The notes under the pieces are model-generated. The model did not search any database. It saw nothing but the letters and a program-made list of their open reading frames with translations, and was not told the DNA's origin. The position numbers and the translations under genes were made by a program. From positions 1 to 37,477 of the IMG/VR virus record IMGVR_UViG_3300045988_063029: DNA of 37,477 nt, one strand, 5' to 3'. Source of the DNA: a virus. Below are positions 1,500 through 37,477 of this stretch, piece after piece (the stretch's first letter is position 1; each line of letters starts with the position of its first letter).

Positions 1500-2216
1500 C
1501 TATTGTTCTAATTGTTTTAATACTTCTGATCTAAATTCTTCTGGGATATTAACGCCATAGGTTATGTCGTTTAATCTATTTACATCCTCGATCGAATTGA
1601 TATAGATTTGCAGCGAATTCAAATATACTCTGTGATACATCACGTGCTTGTCCATTGCTTCTTTCAGTTTCAAGATATCTTCTTTACTAAATATCGTGTC
1701 AACCTCATTGTCTGCATGATATGGCAATAATGTATCGCCAGCATTCGCACGTGCTGCAAGTAAATTTATATATGTCTGATTTTGCTCTGTAAATGAAAAA
1801 TGACCTTTGACTGCGTTTAATTCAAGGTCTAATCCTATTGTTATGATCTGATTGCATTCATTGGTCATTTCTTTTATTTTTCCAGATCTTATAAATTCAA
1901 GATCCTTTGTATTTTCTTTTTTCTTTTCTGTATCATTGGATACTTCCTGCTCCTGGTTAAGTGCCGTGATGATCCCATCATAAATACTCTTGGATGTTAT
2001 TTCTTCCAGAATTACAGTTTCGTAGTCCCCTGCTTCTTTTGGCATATCATCCCAGTCTTTTACGTGGTAGATTCTAATACCATTTCTTTGTATAATTCCT
2101 TGCGGATTATCATCTTTATTACATCTTAAAAACATTTTTGCATTTTGATCATATTTTACATATTGTAATTGTTCATATGCATCAATGATTTTTCCATTTT
2201 TTACTGCCTTATACAT
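1500..2216 (-). CDS. Hypothetical phage protein. The C-terminal half resembles DUF4376-type tail-fibre-associated domains.
   Basis: The 238-aa ORF has a start that overlaps the RT stop by 16 nt (2201-2216), implying co-transcription and coupling. It lies between the tail-fibre/DGR region and the holin. The family call is from memory only. Confidence 0.55.
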   Translation of the reverse strand: MYKAVKNGKIIDAYEQLQYVKYDQNAKMFLRCNKDDNPQGIIQRNGIRIYHVKDWDDMPKEAGDYETVILEEITSKSIYDGIITALNQEQEVSNDTEKKKENTKDLEFIRSGKIKEMTNECNQIITIGLDLELNAVKGHFSFTEQNQTYINLLAARANAGDTLLPYHADNEVDTIFSKEDILKLKEAMDKHVMYHRVYLNSLQIYINSIEDVNRLNDITYGVNIPEEFRSEVLKQLEQ

Positions 2217-3331
2217 AGTCTTTCCTTTCCGAAAAGGTTAGAGTACAATTCTTCCATGTTTTTGATTGTATAATATGCGTTAAAATGTCTTGCGTATGAT
2301 CTCCAACTCTGAAAAGCACTCCACGCATCCTTTTCTGTCATTCTTCCAGCCTCACAGAATTTCTTTAACTTCTTTAGTTTTCTCCTTTCTCTTGTTACAC
2401 TTTTCTTGTAAATTTTCTTTACAATCTTTCCTGATGGTGTCAAGAAGAATCTTCCTTTCAACCATGTAAAACCATGACTAAGTTTTACTATTTGAGTCTT
2501 TTTGTCATTCAGAATAATTCCAAGTTTTTTACATTCCTCTTTTATGACATTCAGGCATTGTTTTAAATATTTTTTATCTGGATGAATCAAATAGCCATCA
2601 TCCATATATCTACCATAATATTTCACTTTTAGTTCTTCTTTAATCAAATGATCCAATTTATTACATGATGCAAGTGCTAGTGTTTGGCTGATCTGTGATC
2701 CAAGTCCAAGCCCTTTGTTTCCTTGAAAGCAATCAATAAAATGATTTATCAAATCAATAGTCCTTTGATCTTTAAATGATTTTTGAACGATTTCTTTAAT
2801 CACATCATGTGATACATTATCAAAAAACTTGCTAAAATCAAATAACAAAATATAGCCATCTGTGCAATATTTTCTATAATGATATTGTAAATGTCTAATC
2901 ATACGATTCATAGCAAAATGATATCCTTTGTTTTTGATTGATGCTCCATTGTCATAGATAAAGCTTCCTTCAATCACTGGTACTAACGCGTGATCGCAAA
3001 GGCACCTTTGAACAATGCGTTCTTCAATCTTCACGCTTTTAATCTTCCGCTTTTTCCCTCTTTCAAATAAATCAAATTCACAGAATCCTTTGCTTCTAAA
3101 TTTTCCATTCATCAATTCTTTTCTCGTTTGATAAACATTTAACGGTGCTTGTACGATGTATTTTTGTGTTGATGCCTTCCATCCAACATTTCTTCTACAT
3201 CGAATATAAGATTTATAAAGATTTTCATAAGAAAAAAGCTCATTAAAAGAAAGAAGCTTTTTCTTTTTCTTAACTTCTCTTCTTTCTTTTCTTCTTTTAT
3301 ATCTTACTTCTTTTCTCTCTTCGCTCGTCAT
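2201..3331 (-). CDS. DGR reverse transcriptase
   Basis: The RT palm motifs are present: FDFSKFFDNVSH, GLGLGSQISQ (the DGR-typical I/LGxxxSQ motif) and YMDD. The RBS AAGAGGT precedes the start. A TR/VR pair and avd lie immediately upstream. Confidence 0.9.
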   Translation of the reverse strand: MTSEERKEVRYKRRKERREVKKKKKLLSFNELFSYENLYKSYIRCRRNVGWKASTQKYIVQAPLNVYQTRKELMNGKFRSKGFCEFDLFERGKKRKIKSVKIEERIVQRCLCDHALVPVIEGSFIYDNGASIKNKGYHFAMNRMIRHLQYHYRKYCTDGYILLFDFSKFFDNVSHDVIKEIVQKSFKDQRTIDLINHFIDCFQGNKGLGLGSQISQTLALASCNKLDHLIKEELKVKYYGRYMDDGYLIHPDKKYLKQCLNVIKEECKKLGIILNDKKTQIVKLSHGFTWLKGRFFLTPSGKIVKKIYKKSVTRERRKLKKLKKFCEAGRMTEKDAWSAFQSWRSYARHFNAYYTIKNMEELYSNLFGKERLCIRQ

Positions 3332-3552
3332 ATTTACCTCTTATTCATTTGTACAGATATAATCCTGATTTTCCGCATATCTGCATAGCGATACTGGGAA
3401 TGAAACGGAAGATTATCAGGCAACTTCCGCCATGCAAGCAGCGTCCTCCCAATCGCATCAAATGTTATATTTACCTTTTTAGGAAGGTCATATTCTCCTT
3501 CTATCTTCTATTCTCACTGCTTTCGCCTTGTGGTTACTTGGTCTGAAAAAAT

Positions 3553-3662
3553 AGAATCCAACGCACACGCCATAGCCGCCGGTAGCATTATTACTATTGA
3601 TATTACCATTGTTATTGACATTGCGAAAAGACACCGCACCGCCTGCATCCGCAGACCTCAGT
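3553..3662 (-). repeat. DGR template repeat (TR), non-coding
   Basis: Positions 3558-3661 align without gaps to 4231-4334 (104 bp). The 6 mismatches are all at plus-strand T, which is coding-strand A, in the TR. The TR reading frame carries 8 AAY codons. The outer boundaries (3553, 3662) are less certain. Confidence 0.92.
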
Positions 3663-3689
3663 GTCACACAGAATATAACCTGTTTTTAA

Positions 3690-4100
3690 TTATTTTAAGA
3701 ATTTTTGAAATCTTTTTCTGTCTTTTGTCATAGCACCTTTAATCAAATTAATCTGAGTTGCTATTAACTCTGACCATTCTTCTAAAACCTTCGTTTCAAA
3801 ATGTATTAATTCATATGCAACCTCAATCTGTGATACTAAATTTTGACATTCCACATATGCTTTTAAGAAAAACTCTCTTCTTATTTGAACTTCTCTTGCA
3901 TTTGTCGGATAAATGCTGTTTGCCTTTTTGGTGTTTGCATATATTTGCGTTGCAGCATCTGCAAGATGTTGTCCCAAATAAAATGTATACCTTTTAGGAA
4001 TTGTATTTACACAACGCCTAATTGTATATATTTCAAGCTTTCTTGCGTTATTTAAAAACTCCATTTCTGAAAGTCCTCTTTGGCTTTTGATCACGCTCAT
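3690..4100 (-). CDS. avd: Accessory variability determinant (Avd-like four-helix-bundle protein)
   Basis: This small helical basic protein lies between VR and TR, the canonical avd position. The IPKRY segment resembles the Avd IPRKH region. GGAGG lies 8 nt upstream of the ATG at 4100. The ORF track start at 4115 has no RBS. Confidence 0.75.
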   Translation of the reverse strand: MSVIKSQRGLSEMEFLNNARKLEIYTIRRCVNTIPKRYTFYLGQHLADAATQIYANTKKANSIYPTNAREVQIRREFFLKAYVECQNLVSQIEVAYELIHFETKVLEEWSELIATQINLIKGAMTKDRKRFQKFLK

Positions 4101-4186
4101 TACTTCATCCTCCATGTGTCAGTATATCATATTTTTGTTTTTGAATCGACCGCCTTACGGCGGTTGATATATTGACTGCTTTTTTT

Positions 4187-4208
4187 CTGCCGGGACATAG
4201 CCCGGCAG
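4187..4208 (-). other. GC-rich hairpin/cruciform just downstream of VR (candidate DGR target-recognition element)
   Basis: CTGCCGGG-ACATAG-CCCGGCAG forms an 8-bp GC-rich stem that ends 10 nt (4208) from the target-gene stop codon (4218-4220). On the transcribed strand it is followed by A residues, not U, so it is not an intrinsic terminator. Confidence 0.6.
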
Positions 4209-4217
4209 ATAATCTGA

Positions 4218-7200
4218 TTAAACCGAGAAGCCAACGCACACGCCATAGCCGCCGGTAGCATTAGTACTATAGATACTACCATAGTTATTGACACCGCGAA
4301 AAGACACCGCACCGCCTGCATCCGCAGACCTCAGCCAATAATCCCATACTGATCCTGTACCGTTATAGATGCACTTTTTCCTCGAATTGTTGTCAGTGTA
4401 GCATGAGAACGTCACTTCTTCTGCTTCTGTTGAAACTTCGTTTTTATAAGGAACTGCCGTTAGCTCAGCTCCCACTTCACAAATTGACGGAATTCTCAAG
4501 TGATCCTGTGATGTTGTTATCGTCGTTGATTGGTTTCCGGCACTTGCCAGCGTATCCGACAACGCGATAAAGTTTCTCCATTGCGGTGGCAGCATAGGAT
4601 ATAATGTTTTATTCATCCATTCTCTTAGCGCGCTCTTATCCCATCCTCCTTTATTCGTTGCGGTCTTATTCATTTGTTGTCTGATTCCGAGCACACCAAT
4701 CATGTAGAAATCACCATTCGTCATTCCTGTTCCCGATGACAATGCGTAATGTCCTTTGGAATGATATCTAAATACAATACTTTCGTCCGGAATAATCTCG
4801 TTCTCTTTTGCTTTCTGCGGTACCATTTTGATTAATGCCGCCGGGGTGAATCCGTATTCTACAGCTTTGCCCATTTTAAAAATTGAGTAAAACTCTCCGA
4901 ACGTGTATGCAGATTTATCTTTTGGATCATCGCTGTAAGCATAGTCATACTGTGTTAAATCCTTGATCTGTCCTGGTAGCTGTGGGTAGATGTACGTTGC
5001 GTTAATGTCCATGTCTTGCGTAACGTCGTCCGCTGTCTTGTCCCATCCAATCCATACATATCCGGATTTTTCAAGGTCTTTTCCTTCGTAGATACAAGAT
5101 CCATGAGCTTTTACATTATGGATCTCGATTACTTCTCCTTCGTTCAGGTATCTTACAACGTATGCCCTTGTCTGTGATGTAAACAATGCTGTTACCGTTG
5201 TATCTTGTGTGATATTTTCAATCGGCACGTCCCATTTGAAGAAAGTATACACATTATCCTGGTCCGGCTCTTTGATCGGTGTCCCAATATATCCTACCTG
5301 GATCGGATCTTGTGCAGCTCCTCCATGCTCAACCTTTTGTGTATTCAGTGTTGTTCCATCCCAGTTCTTAAATGTTACTGTATGCTCTTCCAATAGCTGA
5401 CCGTATGTAAATGTTACTGTTCTGATCGCATCTGACAATTCTTTGTACTTTGTCGGCGAAATTCCGTCAAAATAAACAGATCCTGTCAATACTCCGTTTT
5501 CTGTGTTATGGCCATCGTCGTCAATACCATTCGCTTCATGTAATCTCATTAATGTCCTGTAGGCTTTGACCGTTGTCCTCCAATCAATGTCAATCAATCT
5601 TACTCTTGTCAGGTTTTCCGCGTTCATGGCAATTGTTAAAGTGTCAAGTGCTGGGCTTCCTGAAACATTCAATGTTGTTAAAAGATTGTACGCTTGTAAT
5701 GTAAATTCTTTTACATACATCAGGTTTTTTGCAAAAATTGATGTAACTGCATTCAGTTTTGCTTTTTGCAATCGCTGGTATGGTGCAAATGTGACGCCTG
5801 TGATTCCGCTTCCTCTTGTATAGCACTCTTTTACGTTAATGTTATTGCTAAGATCTAGCTCCTGCGCCAGTGCTGGGCAGTTTTCAACATTGATGTACTC
5901 CAAGGATGTCGCGTTTTTTACAGTTACTTCTTTCATATTTGTATTAACGTACCCATCTGTACTTGAGCCGATCTGTGCTCGTTTTAGTTTTTTACAACTT
6001 GCAATGTCTGTGTATCCAGGATATAAGCATGACAGGTCTCCAAGATCCTGAATAAATGCAGCGTTTCTAATATAGATTTCTGTGTCATTCATCTGCGGTA
6101 CGCCCAACTGTAATTCAACTGCTTTTCCCGCCGTTGTTCGTTTCTGCGTCGTTCCGGACCCAGCTTTTACAGTTATCCATAAGTCACTGTAAGGTGTGAT
6201 CGTCATCTTGCTTTCTGGTGTGATCACAAGATTCCCACTTGTTGGTGTGTACCCTCGAATCGTTGCGCTTTCTGCCGTTGCGTAGGGACTTATAAAGTAA
6301 GAGCTCATAAATGCTCTTTGGTAGTGTAAAAACTGTCGCCTTTGCAGTCTCTTCTGCCCATTCAGCATCGGAATGTATGCAGACGTTCCAAGGACTGTGT
6401 ATGTTTTAATGTCTTTCCGCCACACATCTTCAATCCATAGTGATTCTGCTGCAAGCGACTGTATTTCTTCGCAGTGATCTGCAAACGCATCAAGATCCCA
6501 TGCTCCAGCATTTTCACGATTGATGTACATGTTTGCCAATTCCTGTGGAAACGCTTTCCACATCATCTGAAAGACGGTTGCATCTGCTGCGTTAAATACG
6601 TCTCTGGTTCCAATCTTATCGTAATCCATGTACCCATACTTAAGTGTTAAGCCACCCTCGTTGTCGTTCCCCATTGCTGTATCATTATCATACGCAAAAC
6701 ATAGATTCCATTTTCCAGATAATTTACTGTATCCCCAGAAAGTGTTCTTCGCTCTGTTGTCGACCTGGCTAAATACCAGAGTGATCAGTACGTGCCACAT
6801 TACGGAATCTACAATCATGTGATCTGCTGCTTCTTTCCTGAATTTTGCAATCCTATACTCCTTTGAATCCACTGAAAAAGCCTGGCCGTCAATTGTCACT
6901 ACACTTGGCAGTGTTTTGTTTGTTGCTGCGTCTGCATTGCAAGATACTACCCATGTCAAAAAGTCTTTCCACAATTGCTTTGCTTCTTCTTCATTTTGTG
7001 ACTCCGCAAGGTGTCTAAATTCAAAGTTTGTATCTCCGTCCCATGTCTCTGTCGAAAGATCAGCAGACTTCATTCGGCACTGATTGGATGTATTGTTTGC
7101 TACCTCAATAACGATCACATCGTCTGTTTCATTTTGTGCAAATACATCCAGATTCTTTTTCGAATTGTTGATATTCCCCAACGAATAGAAAACTGTTTCA

Positions 7201-10200
7201 TCTGGTGCTACTGTCATAGGTCCAACCTGTACCGCTTCATTTCCAGTGTTGTGAAAAAATAAAGCTGCCATGTGTCCCTCGACTGTATCTCTTACCTTTT
7301 TATTTATTTGCTTTGCTGGTCGTGTATATGGCTGATATGTATTGTACCAGTCAGATACCAGAATGTTATTAATATGCTCCTGTGATGCAACATTAGTTTT
7401 AAAATTCAGGTAATTAACCCCGATAGAATTATCTGTCATGGCATATGTGTCAACGTGGCTTCCATCTTCAAGATCAAATCCATTTTTAAAATTAAAGTCT
7501 TCATTGCATCCGGCCTGTACATATCCAAGGGATGATGTACCCTGTGCCTTCTGTTCTACGTTTGTTGCTGTCCATGAATGTGCTGCGCCACCTTTTACAT
7601 ATTTATGCGTAACGCTTCCTGTGATCTTCTGGCTTTTTGCCGTTGATACATTCGGAGCATGCCACGTGAAAACGTGCAGACCTGGATTGAGCGTTGCAAC
7701 TTTATCAGGATCCAAGTTTCCAGAGGAATCATAAAGCTGATTCCTGTCATGTCTTGCCATGATCTCAGCCCCATCTTTCCCATCTGCGCAGAAGTTTGCC
7801 TTGATCTCGTCTGTTGTAAGATCTCGACTGTATACTCTAATCATGTAGATAACCACATCACAATCATCAGACCCGATTGTGATTCCTACAGGTGTTGTCT
7901 GTTTCAAGTTGTCATTGCTTGCATAGATTGCTGCTTTTGCTGGTGTTCCTCTTTCCCACAGCATCACCAGGCGATTTTCTGAATCCGGTTCAATGTTCAC
8001 TTCTGCTTCTGTCTTGTACCCCTCACATAATGGATATTCAAGCGTTGTCTGCTCGGTTTTCACTGTCATCGAATTGGCTTTCATACTTAATCCAATGTTG
8101 TTATTCATGCATGTAATTGCCTGCGCATCAAACAATGAGCTGTTTTCAACCTTGTAAATAAATTTAAAGTTTCGCCCATCTTTTCTTGCATCCGTTCCAA
8201 ACAATTTATAATCCAGTGTAATCCTGTCACCTTTTACTACCTTGATACATCGGATTCCTTCTGGATCCGTCTGTAATCCACCGTTATGCGTATCAAAATT
8301 TTCGGAAAGTGTCAGACCACTGACTATTTTTAGATCTGTGATCTTGTTCGGATCAATCTTTAATACAAGACTGTCTGTGATCTCACTGATATCAGATGAT
8401 AGTGCAGAGACTTCAATCGTCTTTTCCCACCTCTTTCCATCACATTCAATTGCAAGTTTTAGCGTTCCTGCATCCGTTGTTCTATAACTCCAGATGTGTT
8501 CCGATTGATCTACGCTTTCGGTTGACTGTAGAGTGTCATTAATGTAAAAATTTACTGTTGTCGGATTGGCAGAGCTTAATACTCTGTATGGGATTGCCAG
8601 TGTCGCGTACTGGTCGACCTTTTTCTCTGTCAGTTTGGCTGCAACGACTGTCCCACCACCATCTTGTGCAACCGCACACGTGAGTGTGTCAGATGTTAAC
8701 GTCACGCCGTTCAGTGACATTGTCCCGTACACGCTTACCTCATGTGCTCCAGCTGTAAGTGTTGTGCTAAACACAATCCTTCGCCCTGTCGTTGTTACCT
8801 CCTGCATGCTTTGTTGGATGCCGTCTACCGTCAAATAAATTCTTTTTACTCCTGATCCTGTTGGCGTTACGTAAATTGTCAACACTCCACTGTTCTTCTC
8901 GGTGTTTCCAAGATTCCAGTCTAACGTAAATGATTCCATTGTGATCGTTAACGTTCTTGTCGCTGTTGCTCCATATGTATCGGTCATTGTAAGCTTGACC
9001 GTATTGGCGCCGCTTGAAAGATGCTCAAAAATGTCCAATGTGATATTGTCGCCCTGTTCAATTGTTTTGTTCTCTTTCAGGATTCCTCCGACATAGATTG
9101 ATAAGTTTCCAGCCCCTGTTGGTGTCTGTGTCGTTGCGTCCAATGATGAGAATTTAAACTTGATTGGTGCTGTTCCATTTGTCTGTAAAACTGAAAATGC
9201 CGCCGGCGAGTACATTGCAAATACGAGTTTGGATCCGGAACTAGATCCCCCACCTGTCCCTATAAAGATTGGATCAAATCCTTCAATGTCTGTCCCGTCC
9301 TGTGTCAGGTGTAGATATCCATCTTCGCTCATATACCCAGAATTAAAAGCAAGCCCACCACTTCCTGATCCAGTTCCTACTGTGATACCGTCGCTTATGA
9401 TCTCGCCATTGTTTGTAAGGTATAACTTCCCATCTTCCATCCGGAAACCATTCGCATAATTGTTCGAGCTTTTTGTCAGTAGCTCTATGTTGTTCGTAAG
9501 TAGCCGAATTGCATCTTGTAAAGCATCTGTATCTTTTTCATTATCGATAATTCTTGACCTGAATTCTTCATTGAGCTTATCAAATGATACTGCCCCGTCT
9601 GCGATTTTTTTCGTTTTAATAGCTCCGTCTGCGATTTTTTCTGTTGTCACACTCTCGTTTGCCATCTTCTCGGATGTGATCGATCCGTCTTTAATTTTTC
9701 TTTCTGTTACAGAATTATCACTGATCTTATCTTCTGTTACTGCCTGATTTCCAATTTTTTCAGATGTCACAGATGAGTCTTGCAGCTTTTTTGACGATAC
9801 TGAGCTATCTTTTAATTCATCCGTAGAAACTGATTGATACTGAAGTTTCTTCCCTGTTACTGTTCTGTCACTGATCTTATCTTCTGTTATTGCTCCATCT
9901 GCAATTTTTTCACCTGAAATGCTTCCATCTGCAATCTGTGCAGCCTGGAACTCTCCCTGTGCTTTCCATGCTCCATTCGTATAAACGTACCAGTTTCCGT
10001 AGACGTAACCTGCTTCTGATCCGTAATAGACGTAGATCTTTGATGTGTCTGTCATTTCCGCTGCTGTTTTTGCAGATAGTGGTGCTCCATACTGGTTTTT
10101 GTCTGCTTTAGTCTGCTTTAGGTTTTCAATGTCCTTCTGTATATCATCCAGTACGCCCAGTTCGTTTTCACTGACTGTCGCAGATTTTAATAAAGATTTT

Positions 10201-10520
10201 TTTACATCTAAATTAAATACAAAGCTTTGCACGATCTCTTCATCTTTCGATAATTCAATCTGGCATTCTGTGATTCCTGTTTCTGCAAGTGCCTGTTCTG
10301 TCAGCTTTATGATTACTGCATTTTCCGAAATTTCGCAATTATTGTAAATTATTTTTTTCGATTGTTTTACTGCGATAAATCTCGCTGTTACCCCTGTAAG
10401 GTTTAGTCCTATAATGTTACATTTTAAAACGCGGCCGGTATCTCCTTGTGTAACCTCTGCTGTTTGTCTGATGCCCTCGCTTGTTAAATCAAGTGTTATT
10501 GTTTTATCTACCATTGCCAT
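4218..10520 (-). CDS. Giant tail fibre / receptor-binding protein, the DGR target (BppU-like N-terminus, fibre repeats, Ig-like and LRR-like regions, C-type-lectin-fold VR domain)
   Basis: The 2100-aa ORF follows Tal. Its N-terminal ~110 aa resemble the baseplate upper protein N domain. Residues 196-315 form 12 decapeptide repeats. The C-terminus YWLRSADAGG...GVCVGFSV is typical of DGR CLec-fold targets. An ATG at 10514 is better spaced from AGGAG than the ATG at 10520. Confidence 0.85.
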   Translation of the reverse strand: MAMVDKTITLDLTSEGIRQTAEVTQGDTGRVLKCNIIGLNLTGVTARFIAVKQSKKIIYNNCEISENAVIIKLTEQALAETGITECQIELSKDEEIVQSFVFNLDVKKSLLKSATVSENELGVLDDIQKDIENLKQTKADKNQYGAPLSAKTAAEMTDTSKIYVYYGSEAGYVYGNWYVYTNGAWKAQGEFQAAQIADGSISGEKIADGAITEDKISDRTVTGKKLQYQSVSTDELKDSSVSSKKLQDSSVTSEKIGNQAVTEDKISDNSVTERKIKDGSITSEKMANESVTTEKIADGAIKTKKIADGAVSFDKLNEEFRSRIIDNEKDTDALQDAIRLLTNNIELLTKSSNNYANGFRMEDGKLYLTNNGEIISDGITVGTGSGSGGLAFNSGYMSEDGYLHLTQDGTDIEGFDPIFIGTGGGSSSGSKLVFAMYSPAAFSVLQTNGTAPIKFKFSSLDATTQTPTGAGNLSIYVGGILKENKTIEQGDNITLDIFEHLSSGANTVKLTMTDTYGATATRTLTITMESFTLDWNLGNTEKNSGVLTIYVTPTGSGVKRIYLTVDGIQQSMQEVTTTGRRIVFSTTLTAGAHEVSVYGTMSLNGVTLTSDTLTCAVAQDGGGTVVAAKLTEKKVDQYATLAIPYRVLSSANPTTVNFYINDTLQSTESVDQSEHIWSYRTTDAGTLKLAIECDGKRWEKTIEVSALSSDISEITDSLVLKIDPNKITDLKIVSGLTLSENFDTHNGGLQTDPEGIRCIKVVKGDRITLDYKLFGTDARKDGRNFKFIYKVENSSLFDAQAITCMNNNIGLSMKANSMTVKTEQTTLEYPLCEGYKTEAEVNIEPDSENRLVMLWERGTPAKAAIYASNDNLKQTTPVGITIGSDDCDVVIYMIRVYSRDLTTDEIKANFCADGKDGAEIMARHDRNQLYDSSGNLDPDKVATLNPGLHVFTWHAPNVSTAKSQKITGSVTHKYVKGGAAHSWTATNVEQKAQGTSSLGYVQAGCNEDFNFKNGFDLEDGSHVDTYAMTDNSIGVNYLNFKTNVASQEHINNILVSDWYNTYQPYTRPAKQINKKVRDTVEGHMAALFFHNTGNEAVQVGPMTVAPDETVFYSLGNINNSKKNLDVFAQNETDDVIVIEVANNTSNQCRMKSADLSTETWDGDTNFEFRHLAESQNEEEAKQLWKDFLTWVVSCNADAATNKTLPSVVTIDGQAFSVDSKEYRIAKFRKEAADHMIVDSVMWHVLITLVFSQVDNRAKNTFWGYSKLSGKWNLCFAYDNDTAMGNDNEGGLTLKYGYMDYDKIGTRDVFNAADATVFQMMWKAFPQELANMYINRENAGAWDLDAFADHCEEIQSLAAESLWIEDVWRKDIKTYTVLGTSAYIPMLNGQKRLQRRQFLHYQRAFMSSYFISPYATAESATIRGYTPTSGNLVITPESKMTITPYSDLWITVKAGSGTTQKRTTAGKAVELQLGVPQMNDTEIYIRNAAFIQDLGDLSCLYPGYTDIASCKKLKRAQIGSSTDGYVNTNMKEVTVKNATSLEYINVENCPALAQELDLSNNINVKECYTRGSGITGVTFAPYQRLQKAKLNAVTSIFAKNLMYVKEFTLQAYNLLTTLNVSGSPALDTLTIAMNAENLTRVRLIDIDWRTTVKAYRTLMRLHEANGIDDDGHNTENGVLTGSVYFDGISPTKYKELSDAIRTVTFTYGQLLEEHTVTFKNWDGTTLNTQKVEHGGAAQDPIQVGYIGTPIKEPDQDNVYTFFKWDVPIENITQDTTVTALFTSQTRAYVVRYLNEGEVIEIHNVKAHGSCIYEGKDLEKSGYVWIGWDKTADDVTQDMDINATYIYPQLPGQIKDLTQYDYAYSDDPKDKSAYTFGEFYSIFKMGKAVEYGFTPAALIKMVPQKAKENEIIPDESIVFRYHSKGHYALSSGTGMTNGDFYMIGVLGIRQQMNKTATNKGGWDKSALREWMNKTLYPMLPPQWRNFIALSDTLASAGNQSTTITTSQDHLRIPSICEVGAELTAVPYKNEVSTEAEEVTFSCYTDNNSRKKCIYNGTGSVWDYWLRSADAGGAVSFRGVNNYGSIYSTNATGGYGVCVGFSV
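4226..4335 (-). repeat. DGR variable repeat (VR), encoding the last ~38 codons of the 2100-aa tail protein
   Basis: The VR aligns to the TR as described in the TR entry. VR encodes LRSADAGGAVSFRGVNNYGSIYSTNATGGYGVCVG. The TR frame encodes LRSADAGGAVSFRNVNNNGNINSNNATGGYGVCVG. Confidence 0.92.
9576..9935 (-). repeat. 12 tandem 30-nt (decapeptide) coding repeats in the tail fibre gene
   Basis: The repeats read IADGSISGEK / IADGAITEDK / ISDRTVTGKK / LQYQSVSTDE / LKDSSVSSKK / LQDSSVTSEK / IGNQAVTEDK / ISDNSVTERK / IKDGSITSEK / MANESVTTEK / IADGAIKTKK / IADGAVSFDK. Confidence 0.85.
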
Positions 10521-36157: not shown

Positions 36158-37348
36158 ATGTCTGTAATTACTAAAACTTATACAAGTAAAAAAACAGGAA
36201 AAATCAAAAAAAGTTATTGTGCTGTCCAATGGCACCCACTTTTGAAACGTAAGGTATCTGGTCCTCGCAGATCGAACAAAAAGGAAGCTAAGCAGGACGA
36301 TGCTAAACTTACCCTTCAAATAAAAAAAGAAGTTAAAGAAGAAAATGTGAAAAAGCAATCAGAGGAATATTTCGGTAAAGTTGCTGATTTGTGGTTAGAG
36401 GCGAATAAAAAAACTTACGCAGATGAAACTTATCGAACTTATCGCGGATATTTAGACAGATATATCTTTCCTGTCTTCGAAGATGTTCCGATTTCTGGAA
36501 TCGAATCAAGGCATATTTTAAATTTTAAGAAAAGTTTAGAAAATGGAAATAATCCAAGAAAACATAAATACGGAGCTGAAACTGTAAACAAAAACATTAA
36601 TATCCTCTGTGATGTGTTCAATTTCGCCGTATCTCCATTAAAATTGATTGATGGTAAAGATAATCCAATGATTGGAATAAAGCGAAATAAAGTGGCATAC
36701 ATGGTCAAACGAACATGGTCTGACGAACAGATCTCTATCTTTTTAAGTTCTATGGAAGCAAAAGCATCGCATTATTATGCCATGTTCTGCTGTCAGATTC
36801 TTCTCGGTCCTCGTCCGAGCGAGACATGTGGTCTTGCAGAAAGCGATTATGATCCTGATCGTCAATGCTTTTATATGCATCGAACTTTAAACAAATACGG
36901 AGTTCTTGAAGACAATATGAAGAGTTCTAATTCTTTCAGAGCTGTTTACATTCCTGATACTCTAAATAAGGCTGTCAAGAAAAATCTACTCTGGAAGAAA
37001 GAAATGAGGTTAAAATATCCTGATCGGTTTGATAATGATTTTCTTTTTAACACTGAAATTGGCACTCCTGTCCGTCCTGATCACTTGTATCGAATGTTTA
37101 CCAGAACTGAAAAACGTTATAATGCAAATCATAATGAAACCTTGCCTGTGATTACTCTGTACGATTGCAGACACACATTCGCAACGACTAATTACGAGCG
37201 TGGAGAATCTGATAAGGTTCTATCTGAGATTATGGGAAATACTCCTTCTACTTTTTTGCAGAAATATGCACACATTCATGGCGATCGAAAGCAGCAATCC
37301 TTGGAAGCTTTTGAGGATATTATTTTTAAGTCAGGCAACAAAAAATAA
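36158..37348 (+). CDS. int: Tyrosine integrase (full length, with N-terminal arm/core-binding regions)
   Basis: The 396-aa protein has LGPRPSE (Arg), DCRHTFATT (His-x-x-Arg) and QKYAHI (Tyr). It lies adjacent to attR. Confidence 0.9.
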   Translation: MSVITKTYTSKKTGKIKKSYCAVQWHPLLKRKVSGPRRSNKKEAKQDDAKLTLQIKKEVKEENVKKQSEEYFGKVADLWLEANKKTYADETYRTYRGYLDRYIFPVFEDVPISGIESRHILNFKKSLENGNNPRKHKYGAETVNKNINILCDVFNFAVSPLKLIDGKDNPMIGIKRNKVAYMVKRTWSDEQISIFLSSMEAKASHYYAMFCCQILLGPRPSETCGLAESDYDPDRQCFYMHRTLNKYGVLEDNMKSSNSFRAVYIPDTLNKAVKKNLLWKKEMRLKYPDRFDNDFLFNTEIGTPVRPDHLYRMFTRTEKRYNANHNETLPVITLYDCRHTFATTNYERGESDKVLSEIMGNTPSTFLQKYAHIHGDRKQQSLEAFEDIIFKSGNKK

Positions 37349-37435: not shown

Positions 37436-37477
37436 GACTCCAACGAGAATCGAACTCGTGATTCGACCTTGAGAGGG
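37436..37477 (-). tRNA. attR core = 3' part of the reconstituted host tRNA gene (the 5' part lies beyond the window). It is possibly tRNA-Glu(CUC).
   Basis: The reverse complement CCCTCTCAAGGTCGAATCACGAGTTCGATTCTCGTTGGAGTCA has a T-arm, a 7-nt acceptor strand and discriminator A. With a 4-nt variable loop the anticodon loop reads CUCUCAA. The isotype call is tentative because the gene is incomplete. Confidence 0.7.

Follow-up and report, generated by a model that had tools for sequence, protein, structure and literature searches.

A diversity-generating retroelement directed at the DUF6273 tip of a giant tail protein in a gut prophage

The viral sequence examined here (IMG/VR record IMGVR_UViG_3300045988_063029, positions 1 to 37,477; the window, 37,477 nucleotides in all) contains two near-identical repeats, one inside the 3' end of the gene for a 2100-residue tail protein and the other in a non-coding stretch next to a reverse transcriptase (RT) gene. 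This raises the question of whether the pair is the variable region (VR) and template region (TR) of a diversity-generating retroelement (DGR) and, if so, whether that element has been at work recently or is a decaying relic. We consider it highly probable that nucleotides 4226-4334 are the VR of a complete, canonical DGR, carried by a temperate siphovirus-type prophage that is integrated at a tRNA-Glu(CTC) gene and probably belongs to Anaerostipes. Such an element is a clean, population-validated case of a DGR that would diversify a giant tail protein at its receptor-binding tip, in a prophage of a butyrate-producing gut genus.

A repeat search of the first 9 kb of the window returned a single long direct repeat, 3553-3661 against 4226-4334, with a length of 109 nt and an offset of 673. 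The copy at 4226-4334 (minus strand), the VR, terminates 6 nt ahead of the stop codon (4220-4218) of the 2100-residue open reading frame (ORF). Its partner at 3553-3661 (minus strand), the TR, is non-coding and adenine-rich, lies 221 nt upstream of the RT start and, when read in the VR frame, holds eight AAY codons, which template eight codons in the hypervariable core of the VR (4261-4295). Base-by-base comparison gave seven mismatches, and all seven fall at a T of the plus strand, that is, at an A of the coding (minus) strand of the TR; the chance of this with 24 adenines among 109 nt is P = 1.2e-5. Six of the mismatches (TR/VR 3591/4264, 3598/4271, 3603/4276, 3610/4283, 3621/4294 and 3622/4295) are those listed in an earlier, sequence-only reading of this DNA, and direct alignment bears them out, along with its count of 23 adenines in the 104-nt TR core (3558-3661), for which the chance of six out of six is P = 6.7e-5. 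In frame, the TR peptide N-V-N-N-N-G-N-I-N-S-N-N becomes G-V-N-N-Y-G-S-I-Y-S-T-N in the VR: five of the eight AAY Asn codons are recoded (to G, Y, S, Y and T) with no stop codon, and the flanks LRSADAGGAVSFR and ATGGYGVCVG are the same in both copies, again as had been read. The seventh mismatch, 3557/4230, changes GGA to GGC and is synonymous. A search of both strands of the whole window, with A positions free to differ and as many as eight changes tolerated at non-A positions, found no second VR beyond this pair.

Related loci were retrieved from public collections with an invariant 39-mer of the repeat (three viral and four metagenome contigs) and with the exact Avd protein (10 further contigs). 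They yielded 16 complete TR/VR pairs, the window included, on independent contigs of metagenome or virome origin, the products of many studies and assemblers. The TR is identical to that of the window in 13 of the 16 pairs, while the 13 VRs that accompany it all differ from one another; across the 16 pairs there are 15 distinct VRs. Within the 13 loci with the canonical TR, every one of the 88 variable substitutions is at an adenine of the 16 in AAY codons, with none at a non-A position (P about 1e-14). The concentration in AAY codons that had been proposed from the window thus holds across loci, although it is not significant in the window alone (P = 0.08). Each of the 16 adenines varies in at least one locus, at a mean rate of 42%, which is comparable with the 52% misincorporation recorded in vitro for bRT-Avd, the RT-Avd complex of Bordetella phage BPP-1 (PMC7826257). 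With the 13 copies of the fixed 3557 difference added, 101 of 101 differences are on TR adenines: 42 are A>T, 32 A>G and 27 A>C, the 13 fixed sites being counted among the last.

The rest of the cassette is nearly invariant. Relative to the window, the contigs compared have 0-7 differences in the 1131 nt of RT, 0-1 in avd, none in the TR and 0-1 in the spacer RNA (two in loci L017 and L019), where the VR core has about 10 differences in 34 nt. Differences beyond the VR fall evenly on the four bases. Among seven contigs, which come from different studies, there are 0-7 differences per 5.1 kb of backbone against differences at 5-13 of the 34 VR-core positions, a per-site excess of roughly 500-fold. 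This comparison indicates that the DGR of the lineage, as represented by the related contigs, has been active while 5 kb of sequence gained about zero substitutions. The sequence-only reading had drawn recent activity from the absence of non-A changes between the window TR and VR. Recency is upheld by the population comparison, but the argument from the window carries little weight, because the whole cassette barely diverges in this lineage. A relic, in which one VR persists beside a decayed TR or RT, is the opposite of what these copies contain, since a full-length RT is present in nearly all of them (376 residues in nine of the 10 loci retrieved through Avd). The lineage has numerous VR alleles of natural origin on one isogenic backbone, a series suited to studies of receptor specificity.

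In addition to substitution, a change in length was seen in one locus. The VR of L002 is 3 nt shorter (equivalent to window 4276-4278, TR 3603-3605), with one AAT-templated codon lost in frame beside a canonical TR; length change therefore also occurs in the VR.

Possible further differences between the copies had been suspected at TR positions 3552, 3557 and 3662, at the boundaries of the repeat. All three are real in the window alignment, but they do not reflect current diversification. All 16 complete VRs have C at the position equivalent to 3557, and for that reason we rejected the A>C change there as a seventh mutagenesis event. The base equivalent to 3662 is constant in every recovered VR, the 3' flank spanning the equivalent of 3552 is identical among the VRs compared there, and divergence of TR from VR past 3553 is seen in all 16 VRs. 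By their sequence these positions appear to be fixed TR/VR boundary differences, the analogue of the initiation of mutagenic homing site IMH versus IMH*.

The genes and RNA expected of a DGR surround the pair. On a single strand, in order, are the target gene, the VR at its end, a hairpin, an avd-like gene, the TR, a structured RNA and the RT gene, and the genes have neither frameshifts nor internal stops. The RT gene (2201-3331, minus strand) encodes 376 residues that match RVT_1 of Pfam (E 6e-19), with the sequence LGSQISQ at residues 210-216 and YMDD at 242; [I/V/L]GxxxSQ is the signature motif of DGR RTs (PMC7826257). The closest solved structure is 8ub7_A (E 3e-20), in which the same motif occupies I181-Q187 with the numbering of BPP-1 bRT; by that numbering 8ub7_A is BPP-1 bRT. 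The equivalent of R74 is conserved; the aligned region is of low identity. Against the window RT, the scores of group II intron maturases and of retron RTs are much weaker than that of 8ub7_A. No DGR-specific NCBIfam model fires on it, and the matches in that collection are sub-threshold ones to group II, retron and Drt models.

Between TR and RT lies a structured RNA (3324-3551, minus strand) that matches the Rfam motif RT-2 (RF03077) at 149 bits, where the gathering score is 40, over model positions 1-222 of 222, and fills the TR-to-RT spacer exactly. In BPP-1 the analogous position is occupied by the RT-10 motif, and Weinberg et al. only speculated that other RT motifs might serve DGRs (PMC5737381). 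By this analogy RT-2 is presumed to be the spacer RNA that recruits the RT and primes synthesis of cDNA. Its placement in an active DGR would turn an orphan Rfam motif into a second class of spacer RNA beside that of BPP-1. A literature search returned nothing specific on RT-2 in papers on DGRs, or on the PDB code 8UB7.

The gene between TR and VR (3690-4115, minus strand) encodes 141 residues and matches PF05635 (E 1.2e-3) over positions 3-104 of the 106 in the profile. The family is also matched by 18 of 51 homologues of this protein, at best with E 5.4e-6. AlphaFold2 (AF2) modelled four long helices with a mean predicted local distance difference test score (pLDDT) of 88.6, and the best Foldseek matches to this model were 2gsc and 2rld (TM score 0.85-0.88, probability 1.00), the latter being assigned by its entry title to the 'S23 ribosomal protein family'. 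When PDB sequences were searched with the sequence and with a profile of this protein, no meaningful match resulted, and none to a solved Avd. Identification of the product as an Avd of the PF05635 four-helix-bundle kind is thus of moderate rather than strong standing.

Just beyond the VR is a GC-rich inverted repeat (4186-4209, minus strand) with a 9-bp stem, TCTGCCGGG/CCCGGCAGA, and the 6-nt loop CTATGT. It begins 16 nt past the VR and 8 nt past the stop codon, and when folded as DNA has a centroid energy of -11.1 kcal/mol (z -3.67; 0 of 200 shuffled sequences were as stable). Hairpins or cruciforms of the BPP-1 type lie 4-34 bp downstream of the VR, and a 4-nt GRNA loop is critical in BPP-1 (Guo 2011, PMC3240598); the inverted repeat falls within the published ranges of stem length and distance, and by that likeness is a candidate target-recognition hairpin or cruciform. 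It is not a canonical terminator, because no T-run follows it on the sense strand. A scan for promoters and terminators around the cassette returned nothing exceeding the expectation from shuffled sequence, and neither hairpin after the VR is a canonical terminator. The other of these (4146-4169, minus strand) separates the first hairpin from avd, and has a 6-bp stem (ACCGCC/GGCGGT) with the sense-strand loop GTAA. This tetraloop is nearer to the BPP-1 type than is the loop of the first hairpin, but at 56 nt past the VR it is beyond the published 4-34 bp.

The target gene (4218-10520, minus strand) encodes the 2100-residue protein, with a BppU_N domain at its N-terminus (residues 5-132, E 1e-9 in Pfam) and a DUF6273 domain (PF19789) at its C-terminus (residues 1948-2099, E 1.2e-12, 48.5 bits against a cut-off of 23.5). 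The VR sits at the C-terminus of the DUF6273 domain, and nearly all of 555 homologues of the target domain belong to PF19789. The gene is directly downstream of genes with PHROG matches to tape measure, Dit and tail proteins, and in one relative the gene neighbouring the target has a Prophage_tail match. Judged by BppU_N and gene position, the product appears to be a BppU-type siphophage baseplate or receptor-binding protein, and the DGR target lies where a receptor-binding protein is expected.

The last 251 residues of the target were modelled with AF2 from 71 sequences, with a pLDDT of 87.8. The variable residues (model 227, 229-231, 233, 235, 237 and 238, within protein residues 2076-2087) all lie on one beta-hairpin, made up of model strands 224-228 and 234-238, where the local pLDDT is about 97. 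This agrees with the published account in which the VR of DUF6273 forms a beta-hairpin on a C-lectin-like domain (PMC10743442), and in the model it is plausible that the variable residues form a single exposed surface. The best fold match in the PDB was 9qa6 (Foldseek E 1.6e-3), the N-terminal domain of which is annotated as DUF6273 (PMC12402451). It was followed by Legionella Lcl and many C-type lectin-like domains with weak E-values, and Mtd and TvpA were not returned by this search. A profile of the target domain gave a weak match to 9qa6 as its only match among PDB sequences, and in BFVD the tip is matched by DUF6273 phage proteins at E 1e-10. A CLec (C-type lectin) fold for the tip, as predicted from these models, is supported only indirectly.

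Several of these observations weigh against a complete DGR of the known kind that is active in the window itself. The Foldseek matches of the target tip to C-type lectins are weak (E 0.3 to 4), the Pfam match of the Avd-like protein is below the gathering score and is accompanied by no sequence match to a solved Avd, and the loop of the first hairpin, at 6 nt (CTATGT), is unlike the 4-nt GRNA loop of BPP-1. An identical target protein, 2098 residues as called, and hence the same VR, occurs on three contigs; the VR state of the window can therefore persist. Finally, the seven non-AAY adenines of the TR core (3658, 3648, 3644, 3601, 3595, 3583 and 3573) do not vary in the 13 loci, and because of this either selection or position-dependent mutagenesis must be invoked. 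Two of them, in an ATC (Ile) and an AGT (Ser) codon (TR 3601 and 3595, VR 4274 and 4268), lie within the variable stretch itself, where invariance at a rate of 42% has a probability of about 8e-4 each. The simplest reading is purifying selection on an Ile/Ser scaffold, with position-dependent mutagenesis as an alternative. The site-by-site table of substitutions that results separates adenines that are free to vary from those that may be held by selection.

We weighed three other explanations against that of a working DGR. Persistence of the same VR on three contigs is what would be seen if the element were silent or recently inactivated, with the VR frozen in this lysogen and its differences from the TR left by an earlier phage generation; the lack of non-A differences would also be expected in that case, given a cassette that is nearly invariant across the lineage. 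Set against this, the RT, Avd, TR, spacer RNA and hairpin of the window match those of clearly diversified lineages exactly or almost exactly (0-7 differences in the 1131 nt of RT and none in the TR), no gene has a frameshift or stop, and both YMDD and the DGR motif are intact. We therefore regard inactivation as improbable. An ordinary duplication, in which the in-gene copy acquired point mutations under diversifying selection or was altered by recombination among tail-fibre alleles, with no part for reverse transcription, has in its favour that the receptor-binding tips of phage tails are common hotspots of both processes. Such events cannot, however, restrict all 88 of the changes to template adenines and at the same time leave the non-coding copy identical in 13 of 16 loci, with the background differences outside the VR distributed evenly over the four bases and the repeat adjoining a DGR-type RT, an Avd-like gene and an RT-2 RNA. 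This explanation is effectively refuted, and the likelihood we leave to it is minimal.

The differences between contigs could in principle also be artefacts, produced when two near-identical repeats are assembled. TR and VR have flanks of 39 nt and about 30 nt in common, and two contigs break within the VR core (L003:1-86 and L005:1-47), one of them joined there to a Nextera adapter. Such breaks are as expected if VRs are heterogeneous within a sample. Chimeras between the copies would give TR-like cores, whereas 15 different cores were found, each 5-11 adenines away from the TR, and every VR retains the reading frame and VR-specific flanks on both sides, in contigs from many studies and assemblers. 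Assembly chimerism was rejected on these grounds as the source of VR diversity, and we give it almost no credence.

How a DGR with this anatomy would operate can be proposed by analogy with BPP-1, from which the suggested transcription, spacer-RNA priming, roles of Avd and the hairpin, and receptor binding are taken. The avd-TR-spacer-RT region would be transcribed, and the RT together with the Avd-like protein would bind the RT-2 spacer RNA just 3' of the TR. Reverse transcription of the TR would then place random bases opposite template adenines, and the mutagenised cDNA would replace the VR at the 3' end of the tail protein gene; the VR-specific 3' boundary, together with the downstream GC-rich hairpin, would direct it to that site. 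Since the TR has eight AAY codons, every rewrite would re-randomise eight residues on the beta-hairpin of the DUF6273, C-type-lectin-like, receptor-binding domain, with no stop codon possible and about 15^8 = 2.6e9 peptides within reach. The window VR, G-V-N-N-Y-G-S-I-Y-S-T-N, would be one draw from that space.

Three of the related loci depart from the canonical TR, and in all three (L018, L017 and L019) the TR differs from it only at adenines. The TR of L018 (core L018:2994-3028, equivalent to window 3588-3622) has seven changes, all at adenines, on a 5.1-kb backbone with no differences from L015 and L021. As well as the fixed 3557 difference, its VR carries all seven of these changes and a further three at variable adenines that remained; TR and VR are therefore related by descent, and diversification has continued from the altered template. 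Loci L017 and L019, from two samples of one study, have a common TR with four A>C changes (same coordinates as in L018). Their VR has two of these four changes in common with the TR and differs from its own TR at non-A positions, a mosaic that points to partial conversion.

On balance, and by a narrow margin of belief, we favour the view that in natural populations of this phage lineage the TR is occasionally overwritten by adenine-mutagenised sequence, which would heritably shift and shrink the space open to the VR, and that the DGR then diversifies on from the altered template. Rare homing of cDNA into the TR and VR-to-TR gene conversion are candidate causes. Assembly error is an unlikely source of the altered TRs, which are known only from assemblies. 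Synthetic DGRs in E. coli also mutate their TR, preferentially losing adenines, and resemble L017, L018 and L019 in this; their TR drift has been contrasted with natural DGRs (bioRxiv 10.64898/2026.07.21.739853). Those systems are engineered and coupled to recombineering, whereas the loci here are from natural prophage populations. Variants of the TR have been reported in Treponema without an adenine-only pattern (PMC4891356), and our literature search found no description of TR drift in natural DGRs. Adenine-only changes of this kind suggest natural erosion of the template, and bear on the functional lifespan of DGRs and on the design of directed evolution based on them.

Of the known systems, the BPP-1 DGR (mtd-VR, avd, TR, brt) has the same order of a target with a C-terminal VR, avd, TR, spacer RNA and RT. 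It likewise has adenine-only TR-to-VR differences concentrated in AAY codons, the [I/V/L]GxxxSQ motif in its RT, and a GC-rich hairpin a few nucleotides past the VR. It differs in that its target is the 381-residue Mtd rather than a 2100-residue BppU-family protein with a DUF6273 tip, its spacer RNA is RT-10 rather than RT-2, and the loop of its hairpin is GAAA rather than 6 nt. The putative host here is a Gram-positive gut anaerobe, unlike that of the Bordetella phage.

Closer in target are the Faecalibacterium prophages Roos, Pioen, Lelie and CP11 and the gut phages nd4 and nd12, which have DGRs with DUF6273 targets, as here. In temperate phages of gut Firmicutes the DGR VR has been mapped to the C-terminus of DUF6273 (PMC11792537), and activity in this group was likewise deduced by comparing cognate genomes. 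Published work on related gut phages already covers this kind of system, its target domain and the use of comparison to infer activity. The RTs of that group are 32-35% identical to the window RT, and the putative host genus differs. In the window, moreover, one target domain is fused to a very long BppU-type protein, whereas the targets there are a tentaclin or a small DUF6273 protein standing alone. Among deposited phage genomes, the RT nearest to that of the window belongs to Roseburia phage Shimadzu (LR596903; 44.8% identity over 90% of the protein), also a gut phage of Lachnospiraceae, which is likened to the window by its RT and has no similarity to it at the nucleotide level.

The window is bounded by an exact 42-bp direct repeat, with copies at 1-42 (attL) and 37436-37477 (attR), the latter adjoining the integrase gene (36158-37348). 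Other genes in the window encode terminase, portal, major head, tape measure, Dit and tail proteins, a holin and an endolysin. The att repeats, the integrase and the head and tail genes therefore mark the window as a temperate siphovirus-type prophage that is complete. It has the same sequence as positions 1-37477 of the human-gut metagenome contig ERZ1742150 NODE_435, and ARAGORN found no complete tRNA within it. The att 42-mer is present in the genomes of Anaerostipes hadrus, A. amylophilus and uncultured Anaerostipes, where it lies in the 3' portion of tRNA-Glu(CTC) and stops 2 nt short of the tRNA 3' end, so that the host is probably a member of this genus. The att 42-mer is the sole basis for this assignment, because the GTDB representative genomes gave neither a match to the exact 39-mer of the repeat nor a confirmed relative in a protein-pattern search with the RT. 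Megablast of positions 2000-6000 against deposited phage genomes gave no match, and a literature search returned nothing specific on a DGR prophage of Anaerostipes.

Downstream of the RT gene is an ORF of 238 residues (1500-2216, minus strand) that overlaps the RT stop by 16 nt and has a weak match to DUF4376 and none in PHROG. It is kept in all related loci, with a divergence of about 5-9% (37-65 of about 700 nt) against less than 1% for the DGR genes. Similarity with most relatives stops at window position 1390, and one reaches 1190; the lysis module beyond about 1390 is therefore mosaic.

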